24,000 nucleotides of DNA from Ketobacter sp. Its GTDB lineage: Bacteria; Pseudomonadota; Gammaproteobacteria; Pseudomonadales; Ketobacteraceae. Position 1 is the first letter of the stretch, and every line of letters starts with the position of its first letter. Of the stretch, positions 18,658-24,000 are shown piece after piece. Location of the stretch: assembly GCF_003671495.1 (NCBI RefSeq), contig NZ_RCHN01000023.1, positions 163,296-187,295 on the forward strand. Reading direction: 5' to 3'. The translations under genes and the position numbers were made by a program. The notes beneath the pieces are model-generated. The model was not told where the DNA came from and searched no databases. It worked only from the letters and a program-made list of their open reading frames with translations.

Positions 18658-18901
18658 TGGTGCCGGTGTGCTTATCTCTGAGTGTGATTGGGGGTGGGCA
18701 TGCCGGTTTTTCTTCTTACGTTGAGGTACCCGGATATTATCGCAACTAAAAACCAACTCACAAGAACTATATTGAAGTTCCGTTGCTGATCTTCGGTACT
18801 AATTTCACACTTATAGAATGGGAGTTATTAGGCACTCACTGCCCCTCTGTAACAGTGAGATAGTACGAGCCCTTCGGTCCGTATATTCACTTTTTATGTG
18901 C

Positions 18902-19333
18902 TTACTGCCCAATCGTAAAGTTAATTGGAGCATCTGTATCTGGAACACCATCAACGATCGGATACAGTATTGCTAGCGGTTTACATGCTGGCTCTTGCCC
19001 CTCAACGAGCATGCCTGCAGTTTTTAATGCCGCTATAGAAGTTAATGTTTCTGGAACTTTACTATCAGAAGTTTGCCCAACTTTTGTTATTATACCGTTT
19101 GAAAACTCAGCTGATAGCTCTGATGAACCATACCCAGATTTAAATTTGACTTTCTTCTTCACAGACGGAATGCTGACTACTGATACAGAACTTACACATT
19201 TATCTGTCACAGACATGAATAAATATGGTTTGGGTTCATAATAGGTTAGGCCCTTATCTTTACTATCAAAATCGATCGAAGCGCATCCAGATAGCATTGC
19301 AGCGAAAGCAAAAGACAATCCCACAGTTCTCAT
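18902..19333 (-). CDS. Hypothetical lipoprotein
   Basis: The signal plus lipobox is MRTVGLSFAFAAMLSGC. An AAGGAGG SD precedes the ATG. Confidence 0.7.
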   Translation of the reverse strand: MRTVGLSFAFAAMLSGCASIDFDSKDKGLTYYEPKPYLFMSVTDKCVSSVSVVSIPSVKKKVKFKSGYGSSELSAEFSNGIITKVGQTSDSKVPETLTSIAALKTAGMLVEGQEPACKPLAILYPIVDGVPDTDAPINFTIGQ

Positions 19334-19375
19334 AAATTCCTCCTTTGGTCGTTTAATTGATTCTAAATTCCAATT

Positions 19376-19651
19376 CTAGTTACAACGTATAGAATCAGAT
19401 AGCCTATTCCAATCAAGGAGCCAATATTGCACTGACACACCTACGTATAGGCTATGGTTGCTACCGATATTACCGATACTTTTCTCACCATCATGTTCGA
19501 TCAATTGACCCCATGCCGGATTGATCTCAATTCTTAAAGATTTCACATCAACTAAAGCATCCTGCAACTCAGACAAAAATTCTTGAGCTTCTCATGCCGA
19601 CCATTCATTTACACAAGCGGTACGATTACCTTTCTTATCTATGATGTACAT
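19376..19651 (-). pseudogene. Small ORF interrupted by one in-frame TGA (19592-19594)
   Basis: The minus strand reads ATG(19651) MYIIDKKGNRTACVNEWSA-TGA-EAQEFLSELQDALVDVKSL..., continuous in a single frame with the track ORF 19376..19576. Confidence 0.45.
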
Positions 19652-19661
19652 GCCTTGTTTT

Positions 19662-19745
19662 ATCTAGCGCCTTGCTTTGGGGTCGGAGAGAAGCGCAGCG
19701 GAACGGAGGTCCCAGCCGCATAGCGGCGACAACAGCAAGTTTTTA
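19662..19745 (-). repeat. Possible divergent/degenerate attC downstream of the SIR2-like gene
   Basis: The imperfect palindrome is cttgctttggggtcgg...ccgctatgcggcgacaacagcaag-type arms. The ends are ATCTAGCgcc (compare AACTAACgcc in the family) and GTTTTTA, which overlaps the gene's TAA stop. Spacer geometry is atypical. Confidence 0.35.
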
Positions 19746-20657
19746 AGTGAAATACAGTGCATCATGCACGCTTTTTGTTAAATCCCATATTGCTTCATCA
19801 AATCCTTTTTTTACGACAGTCACACCAGTAATGCTTTTATCCTTGATCCAGTCAATTGTACTATTTGGATAAGGATCAACGATAAATAGGTTTGGGCGAG
19901 CGTTCTCAATTGGCTCCCAAATGTGTTTGTCATGTTGAATGTACTTAATTCCAACCAGAACAACTAACTTAGAAGAAGAGATAATCTCTGAATATTTTTT
20001 CTGTGTATTGGTAATCAGGTTTCGATTCACGACGACCCGTTTTCCCTCTGCATACATTGCCAAAACAGGGCTTAAGTCAGAATTTCTAGGATCTTTGCAC
20101 CATGTCATCACTTCATCGACTGTTGACACTGCCTTTGTTTCAAGACCTTCAACATATGTACCGCAACCGATCATTGTATTTCCTGATATTGTCAATCCTT
20201 TTGGAAGTTGAGGTAAAAAATTGGATGAACCATGAGGCTTTAGTAAATTAATTCCGCCACCATTAGCATTGTAATCGATACCAAAGCCATGATTAGTTAG
20301 GGACTGCTCGATCAACAGATCGTAGTTTAGCGTTACAATATTAATCCGATCTAGGCAACTCCTAAGCTTGTTGAATAAACGAACATAAGCATTATCTGGT
20401 TTCACGGAAAAGCTTGAAAGATAGCAGGCTAATTCTTTCTGTAGTGGGTTGATAACTCTGCTGTCATCCGCAACAGTCGCCATACCCGCCTCAAACCCTT
20501 CAGTTTTAAAAACTCTTTTAGAGTCATTGTTGAGGTTATAGAAAGCGCCCTTTAACTCCTCAAGCTCGCTGAATAGGTCATTTCCCAGCGGTGGGTTTCT
20601 TGGCGAGCAGCCTCCTGAGCCGTAGCTTGCACCCGCACCAAAAATTATACTAATCAG
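19743..20657 (-). CDS. Stand-alone SIR2-like (SIR2_2 family, NADase-type) protein, about 304 aa, with a non-canonical start
   Basis: TLNYDLLIEQ (catalytic Asn) and LLKPHGSSNF (catalytic His) lie in the track ORF. The same frame stays open upstream of the ATG at 20483 and encodes IIFGAGASYGSGG (the NAD-binding GAGxS motif). No ATG/GTG/TTG lies upstream of that motif. AGGAGA (20669-20664) is followed 6 nt later by CTG (20657) and 9 nt later by ATT (20654). Confidence 0.78.
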   Translation of the reverse strand: MISIIFGAGASYGSGGCSPRNPPLGNDLFSELEELKGAFYNLNNDSKRVFKTEGFEAGMATVADDSRVINPLQKELACYLSSFSVKPDNAYVRLFNKLRSCLDRINIVTLNYDLLIEQSLTNHGFGIDYNANGGGINLLKPHGSSNFLPQLPKGLTISGNTMIGCGTYVEGLETKAVSTVDEVMTWCKDPRNSDLSPVLAMYAEGKRVVVNRNLITNTQKKYSEIISSSKLVVLVGIKYIQHDKHIWEPIENARPNLFIVDPYPNSTIDWIKDKSITGVTVVKKGFDEAIWDLTKSVHDALYFT

Positions 20658-22336: not shown

Positions 22337-23235
22337 TATTCATAACCTATGTAGTCCCAGGCATCACTTAAGAACTGATGAGCACTCTCCCTCGTCCATG
22401 GCTGAGATCCTCTGAATAAATATTTCAATTCATTTACTTCGCCCCATTCAGAACAATTGTCGTACGACAACGTATTGTTGAACAGCTCTGCGAGAACTGC
22501 CCTAACCATCGGCTTAAGTGACTGATATTGAAAACATGAATTTGAGGCATTAAATACTAAGCATTCTATCAAAAAACTTGGAGCATCCTTTGCAGACTGA
22601 ATGCCATTTGATGCCATCTCGTTAGATAGTTTCTTTAGTATTCGTACAACTCTTTTGTACCTCCTTGACGTTGCATCATTTTTCTCAACGCCATTTTGGT
22701 AATGTTGCTCTGGCCAATTCTTGACGCTTTGTGGTTTAAAATCATCTGGTATCATCTCTACACCAGAATGATAATATGATGCAGTTACATATCGTCGATG
22801 CTCAAAAAATGCAGCCACATCTGGCTCTACTCGATAAGTGTTTGCCTTTATATCAAAAGCCTTGCTCCCACGAGTAACAGCAGCTCGTCCAAATCGGGCA
22901 ACAAGGGCTTCCTCTAATTCATTCTTGAAAGTGGCATATTCATATGTCGCAGGAACAAAGCTTTCAGAAAGCTCCATTTTCACATTATCATCAGGATAAT
23001 CTGGGAAATAAGTGTCAAAGCATAGGACACCAATATCTACATCACTATCCTGTCTTACATTAACCCGATTTCTGTAAGAGCCTTGCGTAAATACTTTTAT
23101 ATCTCTATTTTTCAACTTATCACTGGCTTGAATTGCCTGTCTTATTTGTCTTTCAGCATTTTCTGCACGCTCTTGCTCCGTCTTTCCTGGTCCTTGCGAC
23201 CATGTAGCAAATACAGATTCCCAATCCCTACTCAT
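22336..23235 (-). CDS. cGAS/DncV-like nucleotidyltransferase (CD-NTase, SMODS domain)
   Basis: FTQGSYRNRVNVRQDSDVDIGV is the GS...DxD motif. The third acidic residue sits in RVEPDVAAF. The C-terminal helical part includes SFLIECLVFN. An AGGAG SD lies 6 nt before the ATG. Confidence 0.85.
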   Translation of the reverse strand: MSRDWESVFATWSQGPGKTEQERAENAERQIRQAIQASDKLKNRDIKVFTQGSYRNRVNVRQDSDVDIGVLCFDTYFPDYPDDNVKMELSESFVPATYEYATFKNELEEALVARFGRAAVTRGSKAFDIKANTYRVEPDVAAFFEHRRYVTASYYHSGVEMIPDDFKPQSVKNWPEQHYQNGVEKNDATSRRYKRVVRILKKLSNEMASNGIQSAKDAPSFLIECLVFNASNSCFQYQSLKPMVRAVLAELFNNTLSYDNCSEWGEVNELKYLFRGSQPWTRESAHQFLSDAWDYIGYE

Positions 23236-23259
23236 TCATTACTCCTAACTAGTAAAAGC

Positions 23260-23376
23260 AACTAACGCCCGCATCAGTGGGCAACCGTAGTGGAGCCCGT
23301 TTTGTGCAAAAATGACCGCAGGGAATGCACAAAACGGTTGGAGCGTAGGTTGCTCCACTGCATGCGATTGTTATAT
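23260..23376 (-). repeat. attC-like recombination site (boundary between the ccdAB cassette and the CBASS cassette)
   Basis: Plus strand: AACTAAC-gcc-CGCATCAGTGGGCAACC...CCGTTTTGTGCA-N17-TGCACAAAACGG...GGTTGCTCCACTGCATGCG-att-GTTATAT. The inner stem is a perfect 12 bp, and the right arm carries extra unpaired bases. Confidence 0.7.
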
Positions 23377-23437
23377 GATTGATGCCCATACGCCATGCGC
23401 ACGCCTTGCCAACAATTATGTAGATAGGGGCAAAACC

Positions 23438-23683
23438 ATGCAACAACCTTATAATTCCCAGGCCCCTAAAAAGCCCACTAATGTCAGTATAAACAGTGAC
23501 TTACTATCAAAAGCCAAGGCGCTGAAGATCAATTTATCCGCAACTCTCGAAACCGCCCTAATTGAGCTAGTTAATGAGAAGCAGCGCGAGTTATGGCGCG
23601 AAGAGAACCGAGATACCATTGCTTCATACAATCAGATGGTAGAAGAACATGGCACCCTCAGTGATGATCTGAGGTCCTTTTAA
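23438..23683 (+). CDS. ccdA: CcdA-family antitoxin
   Basis: KKPTNVSINSDLLSKAKALKINLSATLETALIELVNEKQRELWREENRDTIASYNQMVEEHGTLSDDLRSF is typical of CcdA. The start is moved to the ATG at 23438, because the track ORF from 23312 runs through the attC. Confidence 0.85.
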   Translation: MQQPYNSQAPKKPTNVSINSDLLSKAKALKINLSATLETALIELVNEKQRELWREENRDTIASYNQMVEEHGTLSDDLRSF

Positions 23684-24000
23684 TGGCTCAATTCATCGCC
23701 TACAAAAATCCAAACAGCAGAACAAAAAAGCTGTACCCATTATTGCTCGATATTCAATCTAACCTTCTAGATGAGCTGAGAACCACTATAGTGGTTCCGC
23801 TAAGCCCTTCTTCTATCTCTGCTTCATCAGCCATTACCAAGCTTTGCCCACAAATTGATATTGAGGGGAAGCCTTACATTGCTATGACTCAGCAAATTGC
23901 TGGAATCGACAGGTCTGTGCTTGGTAAAGAAGCATACGACCTTTCAGCTTATCGTTCCGAAATTATCGCAGCTTTGGACTTCGTGATTTCGGGCATATAA
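23683..24000 (+). CDS. ccdB: CcdB-family toxin (gyrase poison)
   Basis: MAQFIAYKNPNSRTKKLYPLLLDIQSNLLDELRTTIVVPL...IAALDFVISGI parallels F-plasmid CcdB from end to end. The ATG overlaps the ccdA TAA. The stop is at 23998-24000. Confidence 0.88.
   Translation: MAQFIAYKNPNSRTKKLYPLLLDIQSNLLDELRTTIVVPLSPSSISASSAITKLCPQIDIEGKPYIAMTQQIAGIDRSVLGKEAYDLSAYRSEIIAALDFVISGI

Follow-up and report, generated by a model that had tools for sequence, protein, structure and literature searches.

The window analysed here, a 24,000-nucleotide stretch of a Ketobacter sp. genome, is chromosomal in context (RecG, tRNA-Met, RtcB/RtcR, and the T6SS proteins VgrG/VasX) and ends in an AT-rich block that encodes a SIR2-like protein, an FRG-domain protein, a two-gene CBASS, and a CcdAB pair, interspersed with palindromes of ~110 nt (Table 1). 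GC content falls sharply from ~58% to ~40% at position 18716. Locus L003 is 98.6% identical to the window through 18715 and unrelated beyond, which places the left border of the block at 18715/18716 and corrects the preliminary description, where it had been set at 18735.

Table 1. Features of the AT-rich block and its left border (window coordinates).
Feature	Coordinates	Strand	Basis and remarks
Terminator-like hairpin and T-run of host HNH gene	18662..18715	+	Terminator scan; host sequence ends here and the variable block follows
AT-rich block tail	18716..19659	-	Lipoprotein-like ORF (18902-19333) and decayed small ORF
GC-rich element	19660..19745	-	Direct reading of the sequence; stem CTTGCT(G)TTG/CAAAGCAAG
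SIR2-like gene	19743..20693	-	Translation; begins just past the R' box of site A
attC site A	20688..20801	+ (bottom strand)	114 nt including 7-nt core sites
Fused CBASS and FRG cassette	20694..23265	- (sense)	2,572 bp; site A is its attC
FRG-domain protein	20820-21641	-	PADLOC FRG/PDC-S15; Pfam FRG
Half-site B	21683..21709	+	R''-L'' arm only, directly past the Cap15 stop
Cap15-type 2TM effector	21704-22336	-	PADLOC PDLC00694, 4e-96; Pfam Cap15_CD_rec
CD-NTase	22336-23235	-	PADLOC cyclase PDLC00801, 4.8e-132
attC site C	23260..23376	+ (bottom strand)	117 nt including 7-nt core sites
ccdAB cassette	23266..24000	-	735 bp between crossover points; site C is its attC
ccdA	23438-23683	+	Pfam CcdA PF07362, 1.4e-30
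ccdB	23683-24000	+	Pfam CcdB PF01845, 4.2e-31
Putative start of a further attC	23994..24000	+	R' box TATAA/C overlapping the ccdB stop; crossover point coincides with the end of the window

The CD-NTase and effector genes overlap by 1 nt and constitute a type I CBASS; Cap2/Cap3, HORMA/TRIP13, and other cap genes were absent alongside the pair. Genes 77% identical to these occur on Vibrio conjugative plasmids, there without flanking attC sites. The ccdA and ccdB genes are adjacent, with the stop codon of the former overlapping the start of the latter, as in CcdAB toxin-antitoxin systems. Matches of the SIR2-like protein to PADLOC SIR2 models were weak (7e-06), and its reading frame, open from 20696, has no ATG, GTG, or TTG before 20483; a CTG at 20657, 7 nt past an AGGAG, is the probable start. 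PADLOC and Pfam together bore out the CD-NTase, Cap15, FRG, SIR2-like, CcdA, and CcdB calls.

Two of the palindromes, sites A and C, are intact. Both have terminal TAAC/GTTA boxes (R' AATTAAC at 20688-20694 and R'' GTTAGCC at 20795-20801 in site A; R' AACTAAC at 23260-23266 and R'' GTTATAT at 23370-23376 in site C) enclosing a variable center with its own stem of 12 to 13 bp, which in site C is a 12-bp stem forming the variable terminal structure. The 4-nt boxes pair, and the outer RRRY/RYYY bases are only partially complementary. The extra bases lie on the higher-coordinate arm: site C has an unpaired C16 (23361) and T23 (23354) with CCACTG between them, and site A has an extrahelical C16 at 20786, its second bulge falling within an internal loop. 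The unpaired spacer measures 3 nt (gcc) and 2 to 3 nt (at or att), where ~5 to 6 nt per arm is typical, yet position 16 lies at the canonical distance from the R box. The 15-mer TGCATGYGATTGTTA occurs exactly three times, always on the plus strand (20784, 21692, and 23359; none expected from 100 shuffles), and TAACGCCNNCATCA is confined to 20691 and 23263 (0.1 expected). The middle copy of the 15-mer belongs to half-site B, which matches the right arm exactly and has neither a left arm nor an AAC..GTT hairpin. The left arm assigned to half-site B by the covariance model described below (18.5 bits) is spurious; its partner arm has been deleted, and it cannot fold.

As single-stranded DNA, sites A and C form long imperfect hairpins of -28.6 to -30.1 kcal/mol (z -4.3 to -5.2; site A, -30.1 kcal/mol, z -4.3; site C, -29.6 kcal/mol, z -4.8), matched by none of 200 shuffles. 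When all AAC...GTT pairs between 18600 and 24000 were scanned, only these two hairpins reached ~-0.27 kcal/nt, all remaining pairs lying at or above -0.13 kcal/nt. No T-run follows either hairpin, and an Rfam search returned no family match, Rfam being without an attC family.

The right arm TCCNNTGCATGYGATTGTTA, used alone as a query against species-representative public genomes, retrieved 117+ stretches, compared with ~35 expected by chance according to our own calculation. Nearly all retrieved loci contained the matching left arm TAACG..CATCA, and AAC(N3-6)YRTYA was found 50 to 120 nt upstream in 91 of 124 right-arm matches (~6% expected). Covariance model R1 was built from family sites, including A and C, so that the scores of site C (62.4 bits, E 2e-14) and site A (52.8 bits, E 7e-12) are those of training-set members; it detected 335 further sites in 97 of the retrieved loci. 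Within a locus the sites run in a single direction, with one exception, spaced 0.3 to 1.5 kb apart in co-oriented arrays in which 8 kb can hold as many as ~15 sites. Site length is 108 to 117 nt, inside the known range of 57 to 141, and across 67 family members AAC and GTT never vary. Site C is 88 to 91% identical to sites in three other loci (L027, L050, and L121), and site A shows ~80% identity with sites from genomes of Parahaliea, Hahella, and Spongiibacteraceae.

Compensatory changes were observed in 9 of 20 stem pairs in one analysis and in 19 of 33 in another. Paired cells amounted to 92.7%, against 32 to 48% when the partner was slid, and the covariation score was 0.51, against at most 0.09, indicating that selection has maintained the pairing and not the sequence as such. 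The arrays of L089, L045, L016, and L093 each lie next to an integron integrase gene (TIGR02249, 393 to 443 bits; cut-off 265), and tblastn detected integrases in L006, L071, and L105 as well, giving seven intI-bearing loci. Because the family forms arrays beside verified integrases and has covarying stems in which bases 16 and 23 are extrahelical, we conclude that the repeats are genuine integron attC sites and mark gene-cassette boundaries.

In all seven integrase-bearing loci, the strand equivalent to the plus strand of the window points toward intI, and in L089, a Ketobacter integron, the opposite strand carries the cassette ORFs, with a site after each. The CBASS, FRG, and SIR2-like genes are therefore in the sense orientation and ccdAB is antisense, as it is in every related ccdAB locus having a model match. 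The top strand of the array is the minus strand, and the bottom, recombinogenic strand is the plus strand. This polarity places any intI, together with attI if still present, to the right of 24000, beyond the window. A tblastn search of positions 1 to 24000 gave neither intI nor attI (no IntI-like ORF; best E value, 2.1), and no intI was found within 20 kb on the left side.

Cassette boundaries are clearest at the right end. The ccdAB genes recur together with site C in L121 (91%) and L050 (Kangiella, 88.6%), with homology beginning at 23262/23263, at the TAAC box, beyond which the upstream DNA is unrelated and the neighbors differ. Recurrence with an edge at exactly this box argues for cassette mobility. 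In eight related loci the R' box of the following attC contains the ccdB stop: homologs in L121, L122, L123, L126-129, and L128 end ...GGCATATAA, followed by the CG... of an attC that is of the family type in L121 and of the classical 60-nt type in L126/127/129. By analogy with these loci, a further attC would start at the end of the window. Farther left, the loss of its partner arm by half-site B has locked CBASS and FRG into one cassette.

Many features named in the preliminary description were recovered: the design common to sites A and C and half-site B, the attC geometry with extra unpaired bases on the higher-coordinate arm, the folding of both intact sites with extrahelical bases, the minus-strand top strand with ccdAB antisense, and the two stop codons inside TAAC boxes (Cap15, 21704-21706; ccdB, 23998-24000). 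Its cassette block of 18735-24000 holds for ~20.69 to 24.0 kb and is overstated for the left third (18735-20688), which has no intact site. Neither the R1 scan nor the AAC...GTT hairpin scan found an intact family site in 18716-20690, and the SIR2-like gene accordingly has none past it. The GC-rich element beyond this gene reads GCTAGAT where GTTAGAT is expected, folds no better than shuffles (z +0.2), and has no R1 match; read directly from its sequence, it is possibly a degenerate attC of a different type. Next comes a frameshifted small ORF (19650 to 19376), and the block tail has no attC and no Pfam or PADLOC match.

These observations make it very probable that ~20.69 to 24.0 kb of the window belongs to the cassette array of a chromosomal integron, with the palindromes as attC sites and the plus strand as the bottom strand; the decayed stretch back to 18716 is probably array-derived as well. 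Several points weigh against the array reading, namely, the lack of intI and attI within the 24 kb, the presence of just two intact sites and one half-site in the window, a cassette spacing (~2.5 kb) exceeding the usual, the C at position 16, the short central spacer, and the syntenic locus L203, which has no array. That the palindromes might be repeats of another kind (REP/BIME- or MITE-like elements or terminators) resembling attC sites in an ordinary genomic or defense island would suit their intergenic position, palindromic form, and GC content above that of their flanks, as well as the position of the block at a hypervariable point past the HNH gene, where the AT-rich DNA differs in three related strains and its first 0.5 to 2 kb contains no family site. 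This idea is contradicted by the integrase-associated arrays of the same family with their uniform polarity, the canonical extrahelical geometry, the homology edges at the TAAC crossover box, and hairpins having neither a T-run nor an Rfam match, and we consider it highly improbable. It is also unlikely, if less remote, that all of 18716-24000 is an island acquired horizontally by another mechanism, with a few incidental cassettes and an array ending at the window. The abrupt change in GC content, the strain-to-strain variation at the border, and the Vibrio plasmid homologs of the CBASS genes would fit such an origin; on the other hand, the border shows no integrase, transposase, or direct repeat, and since ccdB ends in an R' box at 24000, one or more additional attC sites should follow on the right. 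Low-GC cassettes are, moreover, common in the integrons of higher-GC hosts.

A stronger contender accepts the attC sites as true but regards the cluster as a CALIN, an orphaned or decaying array fragment without integrase, its cassettes static or mobilizable only in trans; we regard this as quite conceivable, its probability falling somewhat short of even. CALINs are a recognized IntegronFinder category (10.1101/2024.07.02.601686), and the window resembles them in having at least two co-oriented attC sites and no intI in the available sequence. The absence of intI within 20 kb leftward agrees with such a status, as do the absence of both array and intI at L203 and the signs of decay: half-site B, no attC past the SIR2-like gene, the frameshifted ORF, and the missing canonical start codon of the SIR2-like gene. 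Yet CALIN status requires that intI be absent beside the array, and the polarity puts any intI on the right-hand side of 24000, outside the window. Sites A and C are, besides, intact and score like those of complete integrons, and short-read contigs from the source sample break inside both (L001 corresponds to 20760-23290), a hint of near-identical further copies.

Under the array reading, the bottom strand, once single-stranded, would fold into an imperfect hairpin whose R box (TAAC/GTTA) and L box would each be bound by one IntI monomer. Extrahelical bases 16 and 23, situated opposite the AAC arm, would dictate strand choice, and IntI would cleave between the A and C of 5'-AAC-3'. Recombination of attC with attC would release a cassette circle, which attI by attC recombination could reinsert beside promoter Pc. 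Two mobile units are predicted: the ccdAB cassette, antisense and presumably self-expressed and array stabilizing, and the 2,572-bp cassette, where the disappearance of half of the intervening attC would have fused a minimal type I CBASS to FRG. Having lost their functional attC sites, the SIR2-like gene and all DNA to the left of it would be fixed in place.

Canonical attC sites have inverse core sites, RYYYAAC...GTTRRRY, at a length of 57 to 141, and two extrahelical bases opposite the AAC arm, one at position 16 (typically G) and the other at 23/24 (T), with a 6-bp stem between them (PMC5027507). The window sites share with examples such as attCaadA7 and the VCR of Vibrio cholerae the core sites, the R/L hairpin, bases 16 and 23, the variable terminal structure, the length class, and the position after a cassette ORF; they differ in having C rather than G at position 16 and a central spacer of 2 to 3 rather than 5 to 6 nt per arm. 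The closest complete counterpart, L089, from a Ketobacter sp. MAG (CAWUJH010000001.1), comprises intI and seven sites of 113 to 120 nt, sister sites with G at position 16 among them; its site Keto6 aligns with site A, and its cassette ORFs lie opposite the ...GATTGTTA arm. L089 sites are spaced 0.7 to 1.2 kb apart, more closely than those of the window, and its intI (TIGR02249, 393 bits) adjoins the array, whereas the window has decayed sites and no visible intI.

The element type was correctly read from the outset but is already well described, integron defense cassettes having been published in 2024-25. Sedentary chromosomal integrons have been described as stores of antiphage systems (Darracq et al. 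2024, 10.1101/2024.07.02.601686), and the defense cassettes of mobile integrons include brc135, a two-gene CBASS type I-like system (Kieffer et al., 10.1101/2024.07.02.601719). The window has in common with these reports a chromosomal location, a two-gene CBASS, FRG and SIR2-like genes, and a toxin-antitoxin cassette. Sedentary chromosomal integrons are characterized by large arrays with a homogeneous attC family; the sites in the window all belong to one family. It departs from the published limit of two components in its 2.6-kb, three-gene unit, a predicted defense cassette apparently produced by fusion of CBASS and FRG through the loss of half an attC.

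The GC content of the window falls from ~58% to ~40% near 18.7 kb, and the AT-rich block that follows carries three copies of the 15-mer TGCATGYGATTGTTA, all on the + strand (20784, 21692, and 23359), where none would be expected by chance; the left-arm motif TAACGCCNNCATCA occurs only at 20691 and 23263. Sites A (20688-20801) and C (23260-23376) form long, imperfect hairpins as single-stranded DNA (-28.6 to -30.1 kcal/mol; z, -4.3 to -5.2), and in a scan of AAC...GTT pairs across 18600-24000 they alone reached approximately -0.27 kcal/nt, no other pair falling below -0.13. Half-site B (21683-21709) is a right arm without its partner. 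All elements of the shared design recognized in the preliminary description are present: terminal boxes, short spacers, a variable center that forms a separate stem, and additional bases in the arm at the higher coordinate.

A scan of a single genome from each species for the right arm alone (TCCNNTGCATGYGATTGTTA) returned at least 117 stretches, against a calculated chance expectation of ~35, from hosts that include Planctomycetota, Acidobacteriota, Cyanobacteria, Nitrospirota, and marine Gammaproteobacteria. The pattern AAC(N3-6)YRTYA lay 50 to 120 nt upstream in 91 of 124 hits among the matches listed (~6% expected). An alignment of 67 sites yielded a consensus hairpin of 20 pairs, 9 of them with compensatory changes, and the covariance model built from it (R1) found 335 more sites in 97 of the 8-kb loci; within a locus these lie on one strand (with one exception), 0.3 to 1.5 kb apart, and number up to ~15. 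Integrases are present in seven loci of the retrieved set; four were confirmed as integron integrases by NCBIfam TIGR02249 (393 to 443 bits; cutoff, 265), and the remaining three share 39 to 55% identity by tblastn with an IntI1 query. In the closest complete example among the matches listed, a Ketobacter MAG (L089), intI occupies 724-1713 of the minus strand; its seven sites, each 113 to 120 nt long, are at 2356-7554, and the cassette ORFs are on the opposite strand with a site after each. When sites A and C were aligned with 15 long-type relatives, 7 of which had not been chosen by the search pattern, 33 pairs were formed, 19 of them compensatory; 92.7% of cells were paired, versus 32 to 48% with the 3' partner slid, and the covariation score was 0.51, versus at most 0.09.

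The integron integrases beside arrays of this family in seven loci, the R1 hits, and the covarying stems agree with the original identification of the sites as attC, and we regard it as highly probable that they are attC and that an integron cassette array makes up the right-hand 3.3 kb. A reading of the palindromes as a non-integron repeat is contradicted by the occurrence of the same arm family next to integron integrases in other genomes. The cassette block had at first been drawn across 18735-24000; its right-hand 3.3 kb is very probably such an array, and the part left of site A is without an intact attC.

In the bottom strand of attC, R' reads RYYYAAC and the arm facing it carries the extrahelical bases, usually G at position 16 and a conserved T at position 23/24, with a 6-bp stem between the two (Nivina et al. 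2016, PMC5027507). Counted from the 3' end of GTTATAT, site C has an unpaired C at position 16 (23361) and an unpaired T at position 23 (23354), with CCACTG between them, and site A has C16 at 20786; because of these extrahelical bases, we take the + strand to be the bottom strand. The constancy of C16 and T23 in the first alignment of pattern-retrieved sites follows from the search pattern itself and is not evidence; in the L089 sites outside that selection, position 16 is G or C and T23 is kept. The strand bearing ...GATTGTTA reads toward intI in 7/7 intI-bearing loci, which puts the top strand of the window on the minus strand, the CBASS, FRG, and SIR2-like genes in sense, ccdAB in antisense, and any intI to the right of 24000. 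The proposed orientation, with a minus top strand and antisense ccdAB, is thus upheld by both the polarity and the extrahelical geometry. Every ccdAB locus with a model hit has that hit on the ccdB strand, so ccdAB is habitually antisense; L137, considered as a counterexample to the polarity, proved irrelevant, its ccdAB lying outside the integron and without attC. Integrase and cassettes diverge in five loci, as in the gammaproteobacterial and acidobacterial ones, and are co-oriented in two, a Planctomycetia MAG (L016, 3552-4469) and an Aminicenantes MAG (L071, 4761-5216).

The gene calls made from the sequence (CD-NTase, Cap15-type effector, FRG, SIR2-like, ccdA, and ccdB) were all borne out, and their positions are listed with those of the cassettes.

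Genes and cassettes in the right-hand part of the window (window coordinates)
Feature	Position	Strand	Length	Boundaries
SIR2-like protein	19743 to ~20657
FRG protein	20820-21641
Cap15-type 2TM effector	21704-22336
CD-NTase	22336-23235
ccdA + ccdB	23438-24000	+
CBASS+FRG cassette	20694-23265		2,572 bp	Crossover points between A and C of TAAC on the + strand
ccdAB cassette	23266-24000		735 bp	Crossover points between A and C of TAAC on the + strand

The ccdAB cassette behaves as a unit of its own: the similarity of the window to a metagenome contig (L121, 91%) and to a Kangiella MAG (L050, 88.6%) starts at 23262/23263, and upstream of that point the sequences are unrelated. The best ccdB relative in the metagenome scan reached 96%. 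The R' box of the next attC, TATAA|CG, takes in the ccdB stop codon in eight related loci, and because of this overlap a further attC very probably begins where the window ends. Among the related loci, the next site is of the family type in L121; in L126, L127, and L129 it is of the classical 60-nt type and has an extrahelical G. A 55-nt deletion derivative of site C was observed in L122 (9640-9694), upstream of a ccdAB cassette with 86% DNA identity over window positions 23341-24000; it keeps the arms and has lost the whole central stem, which shows that a site can be maintained without its variable terminal structure.

Half-site B retains the R''-L'' arm only, after the Cap15 stop, and the deletion has joined CBASS and FRG in one unit. 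The CD-NTase and Cap15 operon shares 77% DNA identity with operons that conjugative plasmids of Vibrio and Shewanella carry without flanking attC. On the Vibrio navarrensis plasmid NZ_CP065219.1 (L202, 3001-4570), the 9-mer GCAACTAAC, consisting of the R' core and cassette start, also stands upstream of the cyclase, where it may be left over from an origin as a cassette or may only reflect conservation of the 5' UTR. Matches in the plasmid collection were confined to the CBASS coding region, the attC family not being found there; the viral collection gave no hits, and Rfam gave no relevant family.

Between 18716 and 20690, neither R1 with filters off nor an AAC..GTT hairpin scan found a further attC, and a model match at 17615-17665 (E, 1.7), which has no stem, was rejected as chance. 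The SIR2-like frame opens at a TAG inside the R' region of site A and has no ATG, GTG, or TTG before 20483; the conserved GAGxS motif lies upstream of 20483. An AGGAG at 20669-20665 is followed by CTG (20657, 7 nt after) or ATT (20654). The CTG is the likely start, and the gene would be either noncanonical in its start or damaged. A GC-rich element of ~85 nt (19660-19745) contains a stem resembling the L stem of attC, and GCTAGAT in place of GTTAGAT; it folds no better than shuffles and has no R1 match. Ten nucleotides past it is a small ORF with a frameshift (MYIIDKKGNRTACVNEWSA and a stop, then ...EAQEFLSELQDALVDVKS..., within 19376-19745), and a lipoprotein-like ORF also follows. From their sequences, the element and the broken ORF look like a dead cassette with a decayed attC.

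The AT-rich block begins at 18715/18716, directly past the HNH terminator. Different AT-rich DNA occupies this border in L003, a 98.6% identical contig from another sample (L003:954), and in L204 (HNH, 90% identity), a short contig (L204:~870). Immediately past the terminator the sequence is hypervariable: among three related strains or species there are three unrelated AT-rich segments, all with small ORFs on the minus strand. The syntenic relative L203, which is more distant, has neither array nor intI at this locus; instead, ParM-like, TnpB, and UvrD genes occur farther along. The gene content of the flank is chromosomal (RecG, tRNA-Met, RtcB/RtcR, and a T6SS VgrG/VasX module). The T6SS effector module (97-6196), which is unrelated to the cassette array, encodes a VgrG-like spike (gp5/Phage_base_V), a PG_binding_1 protein, a 1,002-aa VasX-N toxin, and a 302-aa ORF that is possibly an immunity protein.

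No intI was found by tblastn within the 24-kb window. The array has roughly an even chance of being the distal end of a complete integron, and a somewhat lower one of being an integrase-less CALIN. Exact-protein matches for ccdB, ccdA, RtcB, and the SPFH protein were not found, and those for the CD-NTase, HNH, and lipoprotein were only in 1.5- to 3-kb short-read contigs of sample SRR6473825. The Logan contigs of this sample (L001, L002, and L201) end at 18902, at ~20758 in the center of site A, and at 23290 inside site C; that contigs end within attC suggests additional, nearly identical copies in SRR6473825 and hence a larger array.

Across L004-L120, the arm pair TAACG..GCATCA / TGCATGYGATTGTTA is almost unchanged in Planctomycetota, Acidobacteriota, Cyanobacteria, Nitrospirota, Omnitrophota, and marine Gammaproteobacteria, and planctomycete and acidobacterial loci (L028, L060, L100, L107, L108, and L116) hold 10 to 15 sites per 8 kb. 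A cross-phylum cassette pool is a possible source of the common arms, as is convergent constraint from related integrases. An encompassing reading, which we consider improbable as a whole, would place the window at the distal end of a chromosomal integron, hitherto undescribed, in an uncultured gammaproteobacterium of ~60% GC; the arms (TAACG..CATCA / ..ATG.GATTGTTA) would define a superfamily common to Planctomycetota, Acidobacteriota, Cyanobacteria, Nitrospirota, and marine Gammaproteobacteria, drawing on one interphylum cassette pool with compatible integrases, and through attC decay of the kind seen at half-site B, single cassettes (CBASS and FRG) would become welded into larger composite defense modules.

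The locus adds an example of a chromosomal integron array in which a minimal two-gene CBASS, an FRG gene, and a SIR2-like gene are stored beside a stabilizing TA cassette, and half-site B exemplifies the fusion of neighboring cassettes that can follow when half an attC is lost. The arm motif, which retrieves hundreds of arrays in at least five phyla, may be of more value than the locus itself, as a simple probe for cassette metagenomics and a lead on cross-phylum exchange. These results leave the current understanding of integrons unchanged. In comparison with canonical attC, sites A and C have C rather than G at position 16, G being present in sister sites of the Ketobacter array L089, and their central spacer is 2 to 3 nt instead of 5 to 6. 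Defense systems in sedentary and mobile integron cassettes, among them the two-gene CBASS type I-like cassette brc135, have already been published (10.1101/2024.07.02.601686, 10.1101/2024.07.02.601719), in agreement with the theme of cassette-borne defense raised in the preliminary description. The stabilization of arrays by TA cassettes is likewise established, so that what is mildly new here is the CBASS-FRG fusion by attC decay and the wide cross-phylum spread of the arm motif.
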